Shown here one piece after another: positions 7,168 through 56,992 of a stretch of 64,000 nucleotides of DNA. A program made the position numbers and the translations under genes. Origin of the DNA: a bacterium (GTDB lineage: Bacteria; UBA10199; JAIBAG01). The notes beneath the pieces were generated by a model. It searched no databases. It saw only the letters and a list, made by a program, of their open reading frames with translations, and had not been told where the DNA came from. The number at the start of each line of letters is the position of its first letter. The stretch's first letter is position 1. The stretch covers positions 18,774 to 82,773 of the forward strand of contig JAIBAG010000001.1 of NCBI GenBank assembly GCA_019695305.1, in the 5' to 3' direction.

Positions 7168-7190
7168 ACTCACATAAACACACAAAAGTA

Positions 7191-7349
7191 GTAATCTTTG
7201 AATACTTTTTTATTTTTTTGTAAATATGCGTCTCACCAACAAGCCCTCACCCTGCCATCCAAAAGCCCATCTTCACAGAACTTGTGAGGGCGTCATCTAA
7301 TAGACAGACTTCAGATTTACAAAAAAATAAAAAAGTATTCAAAGATTAC
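7191..7349. repeat. Nested-hairpin element, copy 1: 35-bp perfect terminal inverted repeats around a conserved core
   Basis: 7191-7225 (GTAATCTTTGAATACTTTTTTATTTTTTTGTAAAT) is the exact reverse complement of 7315-7349. The core carries an inner hairpin GCCCTCAC...GTGAGGGC and the motif GTCATCTAATAGACAG, which also occurs at 14350-14366. Confidence 0.75.
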
Positions 7350-7939
7350 GGATACAAACGCCCCACCACCCACTCCCCTTTTTCATTTTTACGATAGACA
7401 AAGCGATCGTGCAGGCGATACGGCTGCTCTATCCAAAATTCAATTTTAGAAGGATTTACTCTAAAACCACTCCAATGGGGCGGACGCGGAATTTCCTTAC
7501 CCTTAAACTTTTCAGAAAATTCCTTAAAACGTTTCTCTAAAGTATCACGGCTATCTAACACTTCACTCTGAAGGGAAGCCCAGGCGCCAATTTGGCTATC
7601 TAAAGGACGGGAACGAAAATACTCATCGGCTTCAGCATCACTAACAACACTAACCTTACCTTTAATACGCACCTGTTTTTTTAATTTTTCCCAATAAAAA
7701 TTAAGTGCTGCAACAGGATTCTTTTTTAAAGCGCGTCCTTTCGACGAATTAAAATTGGTAAAAAATACAAAACCATTTTCGTCAAAGCCTTTTAGTAAAA
7801 CAGTGCGGATGTCTGGATACCCGTTATCATCAAGAGTAGCCAGCATCATAGCCTCGGGCATGGAAAGCCCTGCATTTTTTTTGGCTTCTTCAAACCATTG
7901 GCCAAATTGCACAATAGGATTTGGGTTGAGTGCACTCAT
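7346..7939 (-). CDS. pdxH: Pyridoxamine 5'-phosphate oxidase
   Basis: Full-length match to the PdxH family, including the RTVLLKGFDENGFVFFTN region and the C-terminal WxGxR...P motif. Confidence 0.9.
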   Translation of the reverse strand: MSALNPNPIVQFGQWFEEAKKNAGLSMPEAMMLATLDDNGYPDIRTVLLKGFDENGFVFFTNFNSSKGRALKKNPVAALNFYWEKLKKQVRIKGKVSVVSDAEADEYFRSRPLDSQIGAWASLQSEVLDSRDTLEKRFKEFSEKFKGKEIPRPPHWSGFRVNPSKIEFWIEQPYRLHDRFVYRKNEKGEWVVGRLYP

Positions 7940-8913: not shown

Positions 8914-9116
8914 ATATTAGATCTCCTGTGTATGCCGTATGTAGGAAAAAACCCCAAAATGGTCCACTTTTTTTTAAAACTATCCATTTTTTATTTGACG
9001 TAAACCCCAAATCTTAATATCCACCCTGTTCTGTATCCTATATTGGATATAATCTCTCCTCCGATGGTTTGGAAGATGGATTGGGCATATTGCCCGTATT
9101 ATTTAATGGAGTATCT

Positions 9117-9332
9117 ATGAAAACACGCGGTCGCGTAAAATGGTTTAACGATTCTAAAGGTTTTGGTTTTATCGAGCAGGACAATGGCCAGGATGTATTT
9201 GTTCATTATTCAGCCATTGGTGGTGACGGTTATAAATCCCTCCAAGAAGGTCAGGAAGTTGAGTTTGAACTTCAAACTGGTGCTAAGGGCCCTATGGCTC
9301 AAAACGTAACCAAAGTTGAAGCTAACGCTTAA
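9117..9332 (+). CDS. Cold-shock protein, CspA family
   Basis: KGFGFI and [11 protein letters not shown] motifs. ATG at 9117 with a GGAG Shine-Dalgarno 7 nt upstream. The 5' UTR is long. Confidence 0.9.
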
Positions 9333-9401
9333 TCTTTTAAACGTTTCTTAAAAATTGAGTTTAAAATTCCCGCTCTATAAGCGGCATGGTTTTTTGCGGC
9401 C

Positions 9402-11613: not shown

Positions 11614-14121
11614 TTACTCACTACCTTCCTCAGAAATAGCTTCGGGTGGTAAATCAGCTGCAGTTTCAATGGGAGCGGCTACAGCCACTTCATCGTCACT
11701 TTCGGCAACTTTAGCAACCGATACAACTTTTTCGCCGGTTTCTAAACGTACTAACCGTACACCCTGGGTATTACGTCCCATGTCGGAAATTTGCTTCACA
11801 TGCATGCGGATAATACGGCCCAAGGTAGTAATCAGCATAATGTCGTCAGTTTCAATCACTTCCAAAACACCCACCACATTGCCGGTTTTATCGGTGGTTT
11901 TCATGGTAATAATGCCACTTCCACCACGACCCTGACAACGATACTCGTCGGTGGAGGTTCTTTTACCATAACCCAATTCCGATACAGTAAGCATGCTGGC
12001 ACCTGTAGAAACAACATCCATGCTTACAACACGGTCGCCATTGCCAAGAGAAATACCACGCACGCCGGTAGCTACACGCCCCATGTTACGCACGTCTTCT
12101 TCTTTAAAACGAATGGTTTGGCCTTGTAGGGTAGAAATCATCACATCGTTTTTATTATGTGTTACACGCACCATGACTAATTCATCGCCATCGTCAATAG
12201 AAATGGCAATAATACCACCGGCACGCGGGTTGGAATAAGCCAATAGCTCGGTTTTTTTAACCGTCCCGTTTTTAGTCACAAACACAATGCTTTCGGCCGC
12301 CTCAAAATTTTTAATGGGCATAATCGCCGCCACTTTTTCGTTAGGCTGAAGCGTAATAAGATTGGCAATTGATTTACCCTTGGCGGCGCGGCCGGCCTGG
12401 GGAATTTCATGTACACGCACCCAATGCAAGCGACCCAGCGATGTAAACACCAGCATATAGCTATGTGTGCTGGCAATAAAAAGCTGTTCTACAAAATCTT
12501 CTTCGCGCGTAGCCATACCCATTTTACCTTTACCACCACGGTTTTGTGCACGGTAAATGGCACTGGGGTTACGCTTAATAAAACCTTGATGACTAACAGT
12601 AACCACCATTTCTTCTTCTTGGATAAGATCTTCAACAGAAATATCATCTAAGGAACCAGCCAACAATTCGGTACGGCGGGGATCGGCATATTTGGCTTTA
12701 ATTTCTTTTAATTCATTGGTGATAATTTCAAATACCAGTTTTTCGGACGCCAAAATTTCACGCAGTTTGCCAATTAAGGTTAATACTTCTTTATACTCAT
12801 TAATAATTTTATCCCGTTCAAGCCCCGTTAAGCGTTGCAGGCGCATTTCCAAAATGGCCTGAGCCTGAATTTCGGTTAATCCAAAGCGGGCACACAAGCC
12901 GCTTTTGGCTTCAAGAGGATTGGGTGCTTTTTTAATAAGCGCAATCACTTCGTCGATATTTTCAACAGCAATTTTAAGACCTTCTAAAATATGAGCCCGA
13001 CGAAGCGCTTCTTCCAGTTCAAAATGTGTGCGACGCAAAACAACTTCTTTGCGGTGCGACACAAAAAGAAGTAGCATGTCTTTTAAATTTAAAATTTTAG
13101 GCTGACCGTCTACAATAGCCAACATAATCACGCCAAACGAACTTTGCATGGCGGTATGTTTGTACAGTTGATTAAGCACAACTGAACTTGCGGCCGCTTT
13201 TTTAAGCTCAATCACCACGCGCAAGCCTTCGCGGTCGGATTCGTCGCGAATTTCGCTAATTCCTTCAATTTTATCTTCGTGCACTAGGTTTGCAATCGAC
13301 TCAATAAGGCGCGCTTTATTAACCTGAAACGGAAGTTCGGTAATCACAATCATTTCGCGCTCGGCCTTATTCATGGGTTCAATGGTGGCTTTGGCGCGCA
13401 TCTGCAAAATACCACGACCGGTGCGGTAAGCCTGATGAATACCACCCAAACCATGTATTTGAGCGCCGGTAGGGAAATCGGGGCCTGGCACAATTTTAAT
13501 TAATTCTTCAATAGTCACATCGGGCTTATTAATAACGGCCACCAGCGCATCAATCACTTCACCTAAATTATGGGGAGGAATTTTGGTAGCCATCCCCACA
13601 GCAATACCGTCGGAACCGTTAATTAAAAGATTAGGAACTTTTGTAGGAAGTACGGTGGGTTCTTCGGTAGACGTATCAAAATTAGGGGTAAATTCGACAG
13701 TATTTTTGTCGATGTCGGCCATCATTTCTTCAGCCAAACTCATCATTTTACATTCGGTGTAACGGTAAGCAGCAGCCGAATCACCATCGATGGAACCAAA
13801 GTTACCTTGCCCATCAATTAAGGGGTAACGCATGTTCCATTCTTGCGCCATGCGAACAAGAGAATCATAAACAGCCGAATCGCCATGAGGGTGATATTTT
13901 TTAAGCACTTCCCCCACCACACCGGCGCATTTTGAATAACGCTTGGAAGACAGGAGACCCTCACGAAACATGGCATAAAGGATTCTCCGATGAACCGGTT
14001 TTAAACCGTCACGGATATCAGGTAGCGCACGGCCTACAATCACGCTCATGGCGTAATCGAGGTAAGAGTGCTTCATTTCATCTTCAATGTTAATGCTTTG
14101 AGTTTCTTTTGTAAGGGTCAT
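11614..14121 (-). CDS. gyrA: DNA gyrase subunit A
   Basis: N-terminus [29 protein letters not shown] with the catalytic Tyr region, followed by C-terminal beta-pinwheel repeats. Length is 835 aa. Confidence 0.97.
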
Positions 14122-14253
14122 GGGCGTCTATTTTTACGAGTGAAAATTGATCAATTTTTATAGAAATTTATGCCCCAAAAGTCAATTGTGAAAGAGAGGT
14201 TTTTAACTTTATTTTCAACTCTTTTTCTCCTCTTAAACACCCAAAATCAGAAG

Positions 14254-14405
14254 GACTGGGTTGTATTTAAAAATTTGAGAAAACGTGTGGCCAACCTTAT
14301 AAGCCCTCACTCCACCACCCAAAAGACTCGTTTCCCAGCAATGGTGAGGGCGTCATCTAATAGACAGCCTCCACGTTTTCTCAAATTTTTAAATACAGCC
14401 CAGTC
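14254..14405. repeat. Nested-hairpin element, copy 2: same conserved core as 7191..7349 but with different ~35-bp terminal inverted repeats
   Basis: 14254-14290 is the near-perfect reverse complement of 14371-14405. The core AAGCCCTCAC...GGTGAGGGCGTCATCTAATAGACAG matches copy 1, while the outer arms differ in sequence and still pair. Confidence 0.7.
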
Positions 14406-14664
14406 CAATGCACTGCGTCAACTGAACAAAAGTGTTCAAACTGGCAAATTCGCATGTTTTCTGCATTTGCGGGCGTTAAAAAAATACATGGCCCGCATTA
14501 TTAATCTTGACTTTGGTTTGCCGTTCGCTATCCTTTTCAAACTTCAACATTTTTCTTCGTGCAAAAATTTTTTCCCACGAAGATTACAGGGCTTCTTGCA
14601 TAACGCTTAAGCCTAACCGGGCAATACGTTATACAAAAAGACCAATACCTTAAGGAGGTAACAA

Positions 14665-14937
14665 ATGACTAAAGCCGAACTGATCGATCAGATCGCAAAT
14701 GAAGCTGAATGTTCCAAGGCTCAAGCCGAAAAAGCCTTGAACGCCGCTACCGACTCTATTGCCAAGTGCCTTAAAAAGGGTGGTAAAATTACCTTAACCG
14801 GTTTTGGAACTTTCTCGGTTTCTAAACGTAAGGCCCGTATTGGCCGTAACCCTCAAACCGGCGCCGAAATTAAAATTAAGGCTACCCGTGTTCCTAAATT
14901 TAAGGCCGGTCAGGCTTTAAAAAGTCTTGTTAGCTAA
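14665..14937 (+). CDS. hup: HU family DNA-binding protein
   Basis: Typical 90-aa HU sequence (MTKAELIDQIA...GFGTF...RNPQTGAEI). AAGGAGG Shine-Dalgarno upstream. Confidence 0.93.
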   Translation: MTKAELIDQIANEAECSKAQAEKALNAATDSIAKCLKKGGKITLTGFGTFSVSKRKARIGRNPQTGAEIKIKATRVPKFKAGQALKSLVS

Positions 14938-30273: not shown

Positions 30274-30488
30274 TAATATGAAAAAATCTCGTCTTTATAG
30301 CGACGAGAAAATATCAGATGCAAGGCGCCTGAGGAGACCCGACTGAGGCGTATCGTGAATACGCCGCAGGGAGTGGTCGACGAAGGCAACGCGGCCACGA
30401 AGTGGTCCCCTTGGGACAGATGATGTTTTATCGTCGCTATAAAGTCTTAATCCCGTGTTCCTCCTCGGAACACTTTATTACCCTAACG

Positions 30489-42867: not shown

Positions 42868-43907
42868 TGTAAATTTTCTACAATCACATCGTGCGCTTTA
42901 GGCCTGAATTTTTTAATAGCCTCGTTTATTCGTGTGGGATGAATGCGGTTGGTAAGTAAAATAACAGAAAAATCTTTTTTACGGTCCCACCAAAAAGAAG
43001 TGCCGGTATAACCCAGATGACCCACCGACAATTCTGAAAAATATTTGCCGGATGACGAAGGAAAGCTGGGCGTATCAAAACCAAGAGTAAAGCCACCACT
43101 AGCTGGCTTTGTTAAAAAAGTTTTAAGGACTGCCGGATTAACAAAAGTACTCTCGCCTTTTTCAACTTTCCTTAACTCTATGAGATACCCCGCTACATCC
43201 CGCGCTGTGCCAAACAGGCCGGCATGGCCGGCAACACCATTAAGCAGATAACAACGCTCATCCATCGCTTCGCCCAATAAAATTTTATTGCGCAACGGAC
43301 AGAGCTCGGTGGCCACAAAATGACTTTCTGTTTTATCAAGCGGCTTACTGATTGGATTATAAAATAGATTTAGCTTCAGGGGATTGGCAATTTCATTTTT
43401 AAATAATACATCAAGGGGTAATGAAAATATTTTTTCTAAAATAAAACCCAATAATAAATAACCCAAATCACTGTACACCACTTTAGTCCCCACGGGGTTT
43501 TCTAAAGACTCGGAAACAATTTTATCCGTCATCCACTGTTTTATGTCAGCTGGATGCGATTCTTTCTCATATTCTTTATAAGCAGCAAGACCGGAAGAGT
43601 GATTGAGCAAATGAGCTAATGTTATTTGTGGATTTGCTTTCGAAAAATATTTGGAAAGAGGATCATGAAGGGAACAAAGTTTTCGTTCTACCGCCTTCAT
43701 GAAGAGTGTCGCGGTCGCAATGGGCTTTGTAAGAGAGGCAATATCAAAAAATAAATGGGGCGTTAAGGCACGCTCTATAGGTTCTTTTTGCGCCAAGCCA
43801 TACACTTTTTCAAAAACAATCTTCTGATGACTCAACACAAGAACACTGGCCCCGGGAAAAACGCCATCGGCTAAAGCTTGTTCGAATAAAGAATCAATTT
43901 TATTCAA
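42861..43907 (-). CDS. Serine hydrolase of the beta-lactamase (class C / esterase) family
   Basis: S-x-x-K active site (FDIASLTKP) and the YxN-like region. The start is uncertain. The TTG at 43905-43907 lies just after the ldcA stop, while the longer GTG-initiated ORF (to 43967) would overlap ldcA by 67 bp. Confidence 0.65.
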   Translation of the reverse strand: MNKIDSLFEQALADGVFPGASVLVLSHQKIVFEKVYGLAQKEPIERALTPHLFFDIASLTKPIATATLFMKAVERKLCSLHDPLSKYFSKANPQITLAHLLNHSSGLAAYKEYEKESHPADIKQWMTDKIVSESLENPVGTKVVYSDLGYLLLGFILEKIFSLPLDVLFKNEIANPLKLNLFYNPISKPLDKTESHFVATELCPLRNKILLGEAMDERCYLLNGVAGHAGLFGTARDVAGYLIELRKVEKGESTFVNPAVLKTFLTKPASGGFTLGFDTPSFPSSSGKYFSELSVGHLGYTGTSFWWDRKKDFSVILLTNRIHPTRINEAIKKFRPKAHDVIVENLHQ

Positions 43908-44805
43908 GAGGACTTTCCAGATACTTGAGGGTTTTATTTGTGGCGTTAAGCTCCACCTTGGCTCCAAAAGCCAGTGTCACTTTTTGCGCCCCATGGCCTG
44001 CCGGAAAATTATATAGCACCGGGCCTTTAAAATCTTTTAAAACATCCTTGATGGTTTCAATATAATGCTCGTTCTCACCACCATTTACAAAATTTCCAAA
44101 TATAATTCCCTTGGCCTTTTTAAGTTTTCCAGCCAATTTGAGCTGAGTCAGCATGCGGTCTACCGCGTAGGGTTTTTCGTTAATATCTTCAAAAAATAAT
44201 ATTTTGTTCGTCGTATCAAGCTCATAAGGAGTGGCCAATGTAGAAATGATGAGAGATAGACATCCCCCAGTCAGCATGCCCTGCGCCCTACCCTTTTTTA
44301 AGCACACAGTTTCGTCAAACTGGTAAAACGGTTTTTGCACAATTCCGGTAAGTGTTTGAAAAAGTGTTTTTTCGGTTAAAAGATCCACTGGTGGCGTTAA
44401 GTCTTTAGCTACTACCGGCCCGTAAAAAGTAATCCATTTCTTTTTTTGCGTGAGATAATTTAAAAGTGGCGTGATATCGCTATAGCCCATCACAATTTTA
44501 GGATGGCTGGGCTTCATCATCTTATCAACAAAGGGCAAAATACGCATCATCCCGTAACCACCACGGGCAAAAAACAGCGCGTTTATTTTTTTATTTGATA
44601 AAAGAGAAAGCAGCTCTTTAGCACGTCTGGCATCGTTACCAGCCAGATAATTTTTCTTTTCAAAGATATCGTCTTTGTAAAAAACTTTATAATCTTTAGA
44701 CCGAAGATGCTCCACAGCGGCTAAAAATTTATCTTTTTCAAATGGACTCGCCGAGGCCGCAATACCGATAATGTCACCATCTCTTAGTTGTTTTGCTTTT
44801 TTCAT
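43900..44805 (-). CDS. ldcA: LD-carboxypeptidase (muramoyltetrapeptide carboxypeptidase, peptidase S66)
   Basis: S66 family motifs including the catalytic Ser context GYSDITPL and the C-terminal HG. 301 aa. Confidence 0.82.
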   Translation of the reverse strand: MKKAKQLRDGDIIGIAASASPFEKDKFLAAVEHLRSKDYKVFYKDDIFEKKNYLAGNDARRAKELLSLLSNKKINALFFARGGYGMMRILPFVDKMMKPSHPKIVMGYSDITPLLNYLTQKKKWITFYGPVVAKDLTPPVDLLTEKTLFQTLTGIVQKPFYQFDETVCLKKGRAQGMLTGGCLSLIISTLATPYELDTTNKILFFEDINEKPYAVDRMLTQLKLAGKLKKAKGIIFGNFVNGGENEHYIETIKDVLKDFKGPVLYNFPAGHGAQKVTLAFGAKVELNATNKTLKYLESPLE

Positions 44806-44839
44806 CTTCTTATAAAAAACTCTCTAAACACTTTCTTGA

Positions 44840-45012
44840 AATTACTTAAAAATCCCTGGAGGGACCTTTCTTATATTGAGACCCTCCGTCGTCAATTGGA
44901 ACAACCGGGATACAATAGACCCAATTGGCGGTGGCGGAGCGTCGCTCGGGTCGGCCCGAGCGTAAGCGTGTCTCAATATAAGAAAGGTTCTGGAAGGGAT
45001 TTTTAAGTAATT
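44840..45012. repeat. 173-bp long-stem palindromic element: 43-bp arms with a 6-bp central mismatch, flanking a structured 87-bp core
   Basis: 44840-44882 pairs with 44970-45012. The two 18-19 bp blocks are perfect, with GGAGGG/TCCAGA unpaired between them. The core contains sub-hairpins GCTCGGG/CCCGAGC and CAATTGG/CCAATTG. It lies in the divergent promoter region between ldcA and the E1-alpha gene. Confidence 0.7.
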
Positions 45013-45099
45013 TCTCCCACTTAACGCACCACATCAAAATCTACCTCAGAATAAAGATTTCCATAGACGGAATCAACGCCTTTCTTTTACAATTTGCAT

Positions 45100-49622: not shown

Positions 49623-50471
49623 TTAATTCTTCAATCTTTTCTCTTCTTTTTTCTCTCTAACTTTTTTCCTTTGTACTTTCTTAATACTGTCAGGGGTTGG
49701 CAAGTGCTCTGGCATGGTACCACCTAATTCTTTTATGGTTTCCCTCACCTTTTGGCCCACATTATAGTGGGTTTGATTAGCTTGAAATTTATTTTGATGC
49801 GGTTCTCGCTTGAGTTTTTCTTCTGTTTGGGTAGCACGAAATAAATTAGCAGCTAATTCTGTACTTCCCATATGATCCAAAATTTTTTGACTTTTCTTTA
49901 AGTTTTTTTTCGAATGAATATCCTTCGCTCCTAAACCCCCATATAGTCCTTTGTAACCAAAATCCTGAAAAATAGCATAATCAAGAGGTTCTCTTACTCC
50001 CGCTTTTTTAGCTACCTCGGCAAGGTGAATATTATGCTTGGAAATTTCATCACGCAAAAGTAAACGTTTTTCATTTTCACGATCTTGCTCCGAAAGCTCC
50101 TGTTTCCTGGTTTGAATTGCAAAATAGGTTTGGCCTTTGGCTACTATTTCTTTGGAGGGATCAGCATTTTGGACAATCAAATAACAAGCATACCGCGATA
50201 ACAAAACAGTGGGCATCACCCTATTTGCTCCTGACCCGAGAACCACATTTTCTGTGGTATCAATAAAATGCTGTTCGGCGATATTACCACTATTGATACA
50301 GGCCAACTTTGCTTTATCGATAACGGCTTGAAAATTTCTATACTCGAAATATTCAAGTATCTTTCCTAAATCACGAGACGACCAATATTCTTTTCCATTG
50401 GGATCCATTTTTTTGGCTATTTCAAAAATATTTTTGGAACCGACCATCAAATCATCTTTTTTCTCTTCCAT
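49623..50471 (-). CDS. dinD: DNA-damage-inducible protein D (DinD) family, with Bro-N-like N-terminal domain
   Basis: N-terminal DPNGKEYWSSRDLGKILEY...RNFQAVIDKAKLACINSG...HF pattern matches the DinD family as recalled. Lys/Glu-rich C-terminal tail. Confidence 0.65.
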   Translation of the reverse strand: MEEKKDDLMVGSKNIFEIAKKMDPNGKEYWSSRDLGKILEYFEYRNFQAVIDKAKLACINSGNIAEQHFIDTTENVVLGSGANRVMPTVLLSRYACYLIVQNADPSKEIVAKGQTYFAIQTRKQELSEQDRENEKRLLLRDEISKHNIHLAEVAKKAGVREPLDYAIFQDFGYKGLYGGLGAKDIHSKKNLKKSQKILDHMGSTELAANLFRATQTEEKLKREPHQNKFQANQTHYNVGQKVRETIKELGGTMPEHLPTPDSIKKVQRKKVREKKEEKRLKN

Positions 50472-50579
50472 ATGATAACCTCTTGTTTTTTATACAAAAC
50501 CATTTCGTGCATACCCACGAGATGGTCCATATCACTCCATAAAGAGTTCACTTTTCAAGAGAAAATATCTTAGGATCAC

Positions 50580-50597
50580 TTTGCCAAAGCTGGCAAA
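50580..50597. promoter_or_regulatory. Palindromic candidate operator TTTGCC-N6-GGCAAA, site 1, upstream of the dinD-like gene
   Basis: TTTGCCAAAGCTGGCAAA followed by ATGATCC. A second copy with the same architecture lies 117 bp away. Confidence 0.4.
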
Positions 50598-50696
50598 ATG
50601 ATCCAAGCAACCTAAAGTAATTTTCATAGGTGTAAAAATTACTAAATAATCTTTATTTATCAATAATTTTTGATCATGCCTGGCCAAAAGCACCAT

Positions 50697-50714
50697 TTTG
50701 CCGGCATTGGCAAA
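50697..50714. promoter_or_regulatory. Palindromic candidate operator TTTGCC-N6-GGCAAA, site 2
   Basis: TTTGCCGGCATTGGCAAA followed by ATGGTAT. The extended motif TTTGCC-N5-TGGCAAAATG is shared with site 1. Confidence 0.4.
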
Positions 50715-50873
50715 ATGGTATGGAGCGGTTACATCTCTATACAGTATCTGGCACCGAGCTATTCTGAATAAAAATCGATTCTAACATTGAATCGAGAGTT
50801 AGATATTTGTCTGGTAATTTTAATAAATTGTAATTAGGACATGCTTACAAAATTCTGAAATAAATATAGTGAA

Positions 50874-51227
50874 CTATAAACCCCATCTCCGAAGACAATT
50901 ATTATAATTTCGTTTTGCTTCTTGATAATCACTATCTGTGATAGTTTTTTTCATAAATATACTATATTTAGATTTTCGTTCGGGTGATAATTCATCATAT
51001 TCAAAGCCAGATATATATCGAGATAATGAAGAATCATCCTCATATATTTGTAATAATCGATAATCAATATTTTTTTGAATTACCCAATTAATATACCCAT
51101 CATACTCGTGCCTTTGACAATAAGATCGAATGCCCATTGGGCGTAATTGAAACCAAATAAATAATAAAAAGCCGATAATAGATCCTATAACTATTTTATT
51201 TTTTTTAGTCATATAAATATAGTGCAA
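50874..51227 (-). CDS. Hypothetical small membrane-anchored protein of 117 aa
   Basis: N-terminal TM helix (IVIGSIIGFLLFIWF) then a soluble domain. AT-rich codon usage. Confidence 0.4.
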   Translation of the reverse strand: MHYIYMTKKNKIVIGSIIGFLLFIWFQLRPMGIRSYCQRHEYDGYINWVIQKNIDYRLLQIYEDDSSLSRYISGFEYDELSPERKSKYSIFMKKTITDSDYQEAKRNYNNCLRRWGL

Positions 51228-51378
51228 AACGTGTTTACAAAACCATAAAAAATAAACAAGTTTTTTGATCTGACAGGTCTTAATAAAGCTTTATAACTCC
51301 TCCATAACAGTTTCATGTCTATTTCTGGAACTGTTCCCGTTCACAATACAAGTAAAAATTAAAAAATATGCAGTAACT

Positions 51379-53838: not shown

Positions 53839-53911
53839 TCCGGGCTCGTCCAACGGCAGGACATTTGACTCTGACTCAAAGAATCAAGGTTCGAATCCTT
53901 GGCCCGGATCA
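53839..53911 (+). tRNA. tRNA-Gln (anticodon CUG)
   Basis: Cloverleaf folded by hand: acceptor TCCGGGC/GCCCGGA, D-arm GTCC-AACGGCA-GGAC, anticodon arm TTTGA-CTCTGAC-TCAAA (anticodon CTG), and T-arm CAAGG-TTCGAAT-CCTTG. Confidence 0.85.
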
Positions 53912-56654: not shown

Positions 56655-56875
56655 TGGTTGTAAGACCTAGTAACCATAAAGCCGAGCGATGCTTGTCTCT
56701 ATGGAACTAGCTCTAAAGGAAGTCCGGTGTAATTCCGGCACGGTCCCGCCGCTGTAAGCTGGGGGTCTTTTTAAGATCAACCTCTGTGCAAAGCAAGTCA
56801 CTGTCCCGAACTATCGGGGTGGGAAGACCGCACAAGAGGCCAGCAAGTCAGAATACCAGCCAATCCATTCAAAAT
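56655..56875 (+). ncRNA. Cobalamin (B12) riboswitch
   Basis: Core AAAGGAAGTCCGGTGTAATTCCGGCACGGTCCCGCCGCTGTAAG fits the consensus GGGAA..GGTG.AA.TCC..GC.G.CCCGCCACTGT. A downstream AGTCACTG...GGGAAG and a B12-box-like AGTCAGAATACCAGCC are present. A sigma-70-like TTGACA lies at 56618. The element sits in the 5' leader of the lipoprotein gene at 56993. Confidence 0.8.
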
Positions 56876-56992
56876 TATTTGGATGTGCAGTGCGAGCGAC
56901 ACTTTGTTTTGGTTCCTTCCTTTTGGAATTTTTCCCCAAGACATCGTCTGTTCTCGCTTGTTGAAAATATAAAAATTCAACAGGAGAATCCC

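Follow-up and report, generated by a model that had tools for sequence, protein, structure and literature searches.

E2, a palindromic element in the spacer between gyrA and hup, is a member of a hitherto undescribed family of palindromic repeats, small and non-coding, in which a conserved core is enclosed by long arms that differ between copies and still pair. That the arms pair despite their divergence is most likely due to how DNA is copied. We propose, with a probability of about 0.4, that E2 is a dispersed selfish DNA repeat of the REP/REPIN or MITE kind, with the core as the recognised unit and DNA copying as the process that maintains and lengthens the arms. What we observe is the build and conservation of the elements, compensated changes in a sister family, the strand polarity of CGTC, a flank motif, the lack of an element in orthologous spacers and of a match to known RNA families; that the element moves, that an enzyme recognises it and that template switching takes place are inferred. 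Positions refer to the window, i.e. the whole stretch of 64 kb that was analysed.

The element between gyrA and hup

An inverted-repeat scan of the window delineates E2 as a 154-nt palindromic element at 14253-14406 (+ strand). The left arm (14253-14287, 34% G+C) and the right arm (14372-14406), neither of which is assigned to a strand, are 35 nt each with 84 nt between them, and are 97% complementary, the sole mismatch being a T opposite G, in agreement with the initial annotation, which had described outer arms of about 35 bp as almost perfectly self-complementary. The core (14288-14371, + strand) holds two hairpins and a CGTC. Hairpin A has an 8-bp stem formed by GCCCTCAC (14303-14310) and GTGAGGGC (14344-14351) around a 33-nt loop, whereas hairpin B corresponds to GTC-ATCTAATA-GAC at 14352-14365, and the CGTC is located inside the core at 14351-14354, all on the + strand. 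Part of hairpin B, TCTAATAG, may resemble the nick region of pT181, which represents a lead. The predicted fold energy is -75 kcal/mol for the + strand and -83 kcal/mol for the - strand, and for E2 as well as its counterpart E1 (see below) the folding z is approximately -12 on both strands, with 0 of 200 shuffles being equally stable.

The window originates from an uncultivated metagenome-assembled genome, the nearest GyrA relatives of which, 'Deltaproteobacteria bacterium RIFCSPLOWO2_12_FULL_40_28' and 'GWA2_45_12', are 72-74% identical. The gyrA gene (11614-14121, - strand) encodes an 835-aa protein with 100% identity to the NCBI entry 'DNA gyrase subunit A [bacterium]', and hup is located at 14665-14937 on the + strand. 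Both flanking genes are intact and their synteny is conserved in relatives, confirming the gyrA/hup intergenic region as the site of the element. A predicted hup promoter (TTGACT-16-TATCCT, 14507-14534, + strand), conserved in three relatives, lies 100 nt downstream of E2, and a predicted gyrA promoter (TTGACT-18-TATAAA, 14157-14186, - strand) was recognised by eye, the scan giving a neighbouring weaker site; TTGACTTTT of the latter is common to locus L001 of the RIFCSPLOWO2 relative. E2 thus sits between predicted divergent promoters, upstream of both, and is therefore probably present in neither mRNA. Three relatives with synteny kept have no element in the gyrA-hup spacer, which measures 202-371 bp.

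Two further features of this spacer were observed. Just upstream of the hup -35, a hairpin TGCGGGC-N16-GCCCGCA (14467-14497), the GCGGG/CCCGC of which is conserved in relatives, might serve as a bidirectional terminator or be bound by a regulator. On the - strand past E2, positions 14199-14230 read AAGAGGAG; next comes an ORF of 16 codons with a TTG start, which terminates within the predicted gyrA promoter and could be a leader peptide or a remnant.

The location between divergent promoters of DNA-topology genes, along with pairing that is Watson-Crick only on both strands, could be taken to suggest a host signal, i.e. a cruciform between the gyrA and hup promoters that absorbs negative supercoils and tunes both topology genes. 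Negative supercoiling is known to drive the extrusion of cruciforms (PMC5775427, PMC3176155). We nevertheless consider such a role very improbable, as the other copies reside beside unrelated genes (pdxH, flagellin, ldcA, cytochrome c and CNNM), relatives do without the element at this site, and the explanation would account for one copy only, leaving the conserved strand-polar core unexplained. A spacer of 84 nt moreover renders cruciform extrusion kinetically unfavourable, which also counts against this role.

Shared cores, unlike arms

E1 (7191-7349, + strand) belongs to the same core family as E2, with arms of 35-38 nt (14% G+C) and a spacer of 83-89 nt. The two elements have only the interior in common, namely AAGCCCTCAC, a 33-nt loop and then GTGAGGGCGTCATCTAATAGACAG. 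This 24-mer, located at 14344-14367 in E2 (+ strand), occurs exactly twice in the window (7284 and 14344, both + strand), and none of 100 shuffles contained any match with up to 3 mismatches. Overall, the interiors are approximately 80% identical across 70-73 nt; the GCCCTCAC/GTGAGGGC stem and the 24-mer are 100% identical, as expected from the early observation that the copies share an inner hairpin and core, and the hairpin A loops have the same length (33 nt) and are about 61% identical as counted by hand. The arms, on the other hand, are indeed unrelated between the copies, with 7/35 identities in ungapped comparison and p=0.53 at the best offset in a permutation test, which also exposed an apparent homology of the arms in a MAFFT alignment as an alignment artefact. 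With its outermost 4 nt, the right arm of E1 reaches into pdxH (7346-7939, - strand), covering the TAA stop and the third base of the terminal Pro codon; pdxH is intact, ending in the canonical ...GRLYP and matching a full-length C-terminal Pfam domain. E1 is placed with the pdxH stop on one side and the next ATG 23 nt beyond the other.

The window contains two more elements of this architecture. In E3 (44838-45014, + strand), arms of 45 nt, 89% complementary, are separated by 87 nt, and the core (44872-44982) includes three G-U pairs, all on the + strand, and no A-C pairs. E4 (30293-30444, no strand assigned) begins 20 nt past the flagellin stop codon and has 24-nt arms around a 104-nt interior with 63% G+C; its core is unrelated to the core families of E1/E2 and of the R elements described below. 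All of E1-E4 are intergenic, the arms having 14-34% G+C as compared to 51-63% for the interiors. Inverted repeats with arms of at least 20 nt and spacers of 30-200 nt number 4 in the 64 kb, versus 12 in 1.39 Mb of controls (1 per 116 kb), the controls being unrelated gyrA loci with a GyrA identity of 63% or less. Long palindromes devoid of a core were not detected in the window by the inverted-repeat scan. Next to E3, an LD-carboxypeptidase (Peptidase_S66) gene at 43900-44805 on the - strand overlaps by 68 nt with the annotated TTG start of a downstream beta-lactamase-family ORF, the true start of which is probably further in.

The relative RIFCSPLOWO2_12_FULL_40_28 (GyrA 74% identical) carries a comparable element, R1, approximately 5 kb from gyrA. 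A metagenome scan using a 20-mer from R1 retrieved a further copy, R2, from a different contig of that metagenome (L088, 3155-3319), and a third element with a different core, R3, is found 320 nt from R2 (L088, 3638-3737), with a small cytochrome c gene (CxxCH) between them. An ORF at 3154-3627 of L088 crosses all of R2 in frame. R1 is identical and has the same orientation in four independent assemblies and is consequently no assembly artefact. Although the window is derived from a metagenome-assembled genome, an artefact or chance similarity is hence scarcely conceivable as the source of these elements, also considering the failure of all 100 shuffles to yield the 24-mer, the folding z of about -12, and the intact, syntenic flanking genes.

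R1 and R2 are 80% identical across 143 nt. Neither the junction sequences nor the stem of hairpin A differ between the two, while its loop has diverged, and in the hairpin B stem 4 of 9 pairs have changed, all compensated (TTTCAAACC/GGTTTGAAA versus CTTTAAGGC/GCCTTAAAG), with identical blocks of 21 nt and 14 nt around this hairpin. Of the arms, the inner 19 nt are 14/19 identical with all differences compensated (p=0.0017 for the whole arm), while the outer parts are unrelated yet perfectly paired (25/25 and 29/29). A sister species (L090), with an estimated GyrA identity of about 93%, is without R1; homology resumes some 8 nt from the R1 end, and R1 is located at a homology breakpoint, L090 being wholly different to the left of it. 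A CGTC flanks the R1 core on both sides, and, as judged by eye, what is left on taking out the core would be a perfect hairpin tipped by CGT. For R2, a search with the adjoining FadB-like protein yielded no close relative that would provide an empty site. In the R1-bearing genome, a segment of about 1.9 kb (L001, 2935-4880) with a DUF1016/YhcG-like gene, and with R1 at its right edge, separates VitK2-biosynthesis and CNNM genes, which adjoin in L084 and L085.

The cores display a pronounced strand polarity. On the shared strand of E1, E2, E3, R1 and R2, as set by homology, covariance model and flank motif, CGTC is present 9 times and GACG 0 times, against a window background of 0.0019 per nt. 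CGTC is the only tetramer common to all six cores examined, located on one strand only, e.g. at 14351-14354, 7229-7232, 7291-7294, 44887-44893 and 44940-44943. Strand-specific tetranucleotides beside hairpins are a signature of single-strand recognition, as in REP/RAYT and IS200/IS605 systems. The orientation relative to genes is inconsistent, R1 being sense, R2 antisense, and E1 antisense on the CGTC strand.

In addition, a motif outside the left arm, CTC-N(1-3)-TAAACAC, is common to E1 (7169-7181), E2 (14230-14240) and E3 (44820-44831, with TAAACAC at 44825), ending 6-12 nt from the arm and having no other match in the window on either strand; in E2 it reads CTCT-TAAACAC on the + strand and ends 12 nt before the arm. 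The similarity of the E1 and E2 left flanks gives p=0.14 as a free local alignment and is convincing only as a positional motif together with E3. A weaker motif, AA(C/T)GC(A/C)C(C)AC, follows the right arms of E1-E3. At E2 this flank is AATGCAC (14407-14413, + strand), a weak match to the AACGC(A/C)CCAC present 8-9 nt past E1 and E3. The corresponding stretch at E1 is native pdxH coding sequence and therefore cannot belong to an insert. The left motif may be a target site or mark the actual terminus of the element. Read on the - strand, the left flanks display GTGTTTA and then GAG(G)AG, which resembles a Shine-Dalgarno sequence, shortly before the epimerase, gyrA and ldcA-like genes. TAAACAC was rejected as a promoter, its spacing to any -10 being inconsistent, as was an outward promoter in the core, where TAGACA is without a conserved -10 partner.

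Origin of the arm pairing

The initial annotation had explained the conserved interior, the differing arms and the retained pairing by covariation in a long stem under selection. The pattern as such stands, but covariation requires homologous columns and is not scorable on the arms of E1 and E2, which are without detectable homology and the complementarity of which could equally have independent origins; selection on an RNA is furthermore not the sole possible cause. Only the sister family R1/R2/E3 displays true compensated change in columns that are homologous, the copies to hand being two with the E core and three with the R core. A covariance model built from the R1/R2 core matches E3 at full length (23.5 bits, E approximately 1e-4), demonstrating that the R family spans two genomes with 74% GyrA identity and that the constraint on core structure is real. 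In the structural alignment of R1, R2 and E3, pairing extends to 97.8% of cells, and two-sided change affects 14 of 30 core pairs; 0 of 500 shuffles reach these values and slid controls pair at 35-50%, yet with n=3 and an alignment fitted to the model, this check for covariation is supportive rather than conclusive. The core is under strong constraint, both in sequence and in structure, and with strand polarity.

The pooled changes between E1 and E2 and between R1 and R2 comprise 30 two-sided and 0 one-sided events, and the arms are near-purely Watson-Crick, with a single G-U among 228 pair instances (E1/E2/R1/R2). Two-sided changes without one-sided ones and near-zero G-U are more readily explained if one arm serves as the template for its partner than by stepwise compensation in an RNA.

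The elements may alternatively specify a structured RNA, i.e. a small three-way-junction RNA or cis-acting mRNA element, the closing helix of which would serve as a processing or stabilising stem, for example as an RNase III substrate, and would insulate or stabilise the cistrons next to it, with arms covarying under selection. This would be in agreement with a conserved junction, varying loops and compensated stems, with the G-U pairs of E3 being confined to one strand and the single mismatch of E2 being U-G on the + strand, as well as with the placement of several copies tight between co-oriented genes (E1 after pdxH, R2/R3 around cytochrome c and E4 after flagellin). Similarly, on the - strand each of E1-E3 precedes a - strand gene, with GTGTTTA and a purine-rich Shine-Dalgarno-like stretch coming after the element. 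We regard an RNA as a serious but less likely alternative, considering that no Rfam family matches at gathering score, that E2 is upstream of both predicted promoters, that the core orientation varies relative to the neighbouring genes, that no terminator-like T-run follows the elements, and that the arms are near-purely Watson-Crick, 35-45 perfect pairs far exceeding folding needs.

For the selfish repeat that we favour, we envisage the following mechanism. The conserved apex is a strand-polar core of 85-110 nt with two hairpins and CGTC tags, forming a three-way junction together with the closing stem. This core would be the unit that is recognised and propagated, most probably as folded single-stranded DNA or as an extruded cruciform, by an enzyme acting on it in trans and encoded elsewhere in the genome. 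The closing stem of 23-45 bp is free of sequence constraint, and template switching between the arms during replication would keep it Watson-Crick perfect and replace or lengthen it outwards into the local flanking DNA. With one arm copied onto the other, each copy would obtain its own A+T-rich, self-complementary arms, and the apparent covariation of the arms, as a product of copying, would be mutational and no evidence of selection on RNA. The arms are unconstrained in sequence, specific to each locus and similar in composition to local intergenic DNA, one of them overlapping a native stop codon.

Template switching between the arms of inverted repeats is documented to yield, without selection, perfect stems in one step and to homogenise and expand arms; multi-base 'compensatory' changes and inversion of spacers are also on record (PMC8794818, PMC5941160, PMC13100816, PMC8604942). 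As described for quasipalindromes, it would account for the perfect arms, the multi-base 'compensatory' changes, the arm expansion and a possible spacer inversion; it is a process rather than an element family, and is usually documented with shorter arms and small spacers, whereas the arms here are 84-107 nt apart. The latter argues against the mobile-repeat reading, as do the low numbers of copies (two with the E core and three with the R core) and the lack of a transposase-type gene among the 63 ORFs of the window. The G-U pairs of the E3 core, all on the + strand, hint at selection on one strand, and a conserved junction with compensated stems is also the look of a functional RNA. Finally, the + strand, which bears the CGTC, has a negative GC skew throughout, according to which the CGTC strand would be the leading-strand template, not the preference of IS200/IS605-type enzymes.

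A variant in which the core itself transposes, as a CGTC-tagged, strand-polar unit of 85-110 nt that either inserts at single-stranded hairpin tips or builds its stem by inverted copying of the flank (an inverted target-site duplication), would likewise generate one core with locus-specific, perfectly complementary arms. Such a unit would constitute a novel type of miniature mobile element, but this variant appears unlikely to us.

We consider it similarly improbable that the elements are composite, with arms that originate as terminal inverted repeats from more than one MITE or palindrome family, and the E core a smaller mobile unit inserted at the single-stranded hairpin apex or exchanged between hairpins. 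The outer end of the E2 arm, GGACTGGG-TTG-TATTT, does resemble the R3 arm, GGACTGGG-AGGGG-TATTT, the 8-mer GGACTGGG being rare (36 occurrences in 1.4 Mb, both orientations counted), and part of the E3 arm also resembles the R3 arm (p=0.005, uncorrected); these arm similarities fail correction for 42 comparisons. The perfect hairpin with a CGT tip expected from excision of the R1 core, and the motif outside the arms of E1-E3, would also be compatible with nesting. In contrast, the window has neither empty long palindromes nor target-site duplications seen by eye, no remnant of a MITE interior is present between arm and core, and R1 and R2 have homologous inner arms and P1 stems that run on into the core without a break, indicating that at least this part travels with the core.

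Likeness to known elements

Database searches returned no relatives of the element. An exact 20-mer of the E core has 0 matches in the GTDB representative genomes, JGI metagenomes and IMG/VR; a relaxed hairpin pattern has one match in IMG/VR, inside a high-G+C coding region, which was dismissed as chance. Plasmid sequences gave no blastn match to the E or R cores, and no relatives were returned by a chimeric peptide query of open frames across the cores or by a full HMMER search using a spurious ORF over E2. In Rfam 15, no family matches the elements at gathering score, and up to E 10 only generic miRNA-precursor hairpin models appear, far below threshold. Elsewhere in the window, gathering-score matches are a cspA thermoregulator-like structure over a cold-shock-domain gene (8963-9349), a cobalamin riboswitch (56670-56878) upstream of a 501-aa protein without a Pfam domain, and one tRNA (53839-53909). 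The 63 ORFs of the window include no transposase, HUH nuclease, integrase or reverse transcriptase, and the 64 kb contain no RAYT gene. A Bro-N domain protein (49623-51271) adjoins a 400-nt A+T-rich gap with imperfect palindromes (51180-51271 and 50407-50452), a region that may be a prophage remnant.

Several established classes were rejected. For an intrinsic terminator, 0 terminator-like sites were detected at E1 and E2, no T-run follows, and E2 is located in a divergent promoter region. Motifs of dif/Xer and parS do not fit; a retron msr/msd would require a reverse transcriptase, of which there is none in the window, and the interior is only 84 nt; and core motifs or Rfam matches of hammerhead or other ribozymes are absent. 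Concerning a possible inverton, R1 has a single orientation in 4 assemblies, and the core is without a convincing promoter. Integron attC sites are comparable in that structure is conserved over sequence and a long imperfect palindrome is recognised as a folded single strand. They differ in keeping R''/R' core sites (RYYYAAC/GTTRRRY) at the stem base as well as extrahelical bases, whereas here the base varies and the arms are perfect, and no integrase or cassette array is present. An attC identity was accordingly discarded: the stem bases differ among copies, TAAACAC is outside the stem without a complementary partner, and there is no integrase.

MITEs (e.g. Correia, RUP and Nezha) and ERIC elements are likewise 100-180 bp, non-coding and intergenic, with long inverted repeats, and are variably present between relatives. 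Copies of a MITE family share their termini and vary inside, which is the opposite of E1 and E2, and the window has no transposase gene that would point to a parent insertion sequence. In line with the initial annotation, the pattern is hence unlike that of copies of one MITE family: conserved terminal inverted repeats are absent, as the E1 and E2 arms agree at 7/35 positions, and no target-site duplications were seen by eye at E1-E4 or R1-R3.

Among known systems, REPINs come closest. They are long hairpins in which compensatory changes are common (PMC3116915), and the present elements are alike in being dispersed and extragenic, in forming one long hairpin in single-stranded DNA or RNA, in a variable part that continues to pair through compensatory changes (PMC3116915), in long persistence, and in a strand-specific tetranucleotide beside hairpins. 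The layout is reversed, though, as a REPIN has conserved REP ends and a variable apex, while here the apex is conserved and the base variable; furthermore, the arms here are A+T-rich and 23-45 bp long, compared to the G+C-rich REP stems of 8-20 bp.

The one-strand CGTC points towards the CGTC-tagged REP superfamily, which is without a known transposase of its own (Di Nocera et al. 2013, PMC3733652). CGTC on one strand beside hairpins is common to both; hairpin B of the R type combines a stem of 9 bp with a loop of 5 nt and an ACCA tail, and in E3 the CGTC is followed by a hairpin B with a 7-bp stem and a 4-nt loop. Measured against the features of that superfamily (an unpaired CGTC, an 8-9-bp stem, a 4-5-nt loop and a CCA tail), hairpin B of the R elements and of E3 fits the stem and loop sizes, whereas hairpin A of the E elements, with its 33-nt loop, does not. 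Other differences are hairpin A loops of 17-33 nt and a tag that is not always directly at the stem foot, and a long variable closing stem along with a two-hairpin core is undescribed for that superfamily.

On present evidence, annotation of E2 as a regulatory RNA of gyrA or hup is unwarranted. The CGTC tag and the shared flank motif provide handles for finding the enzyme that recognises the core. If confirmed, the family would be a REPIN design turned inside out, present in an uncultivated lineage that resembles deltaproteobacteria and missing from Rfam and the other repeat collections searched. It would also constitute a natural test case, in which perfect long-stem 'covariation' can come from DNA copying without selection on RNA structure. 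As DNA copying can mimic covariation in this way, covariation-based RNA discovery must separate the two causes.
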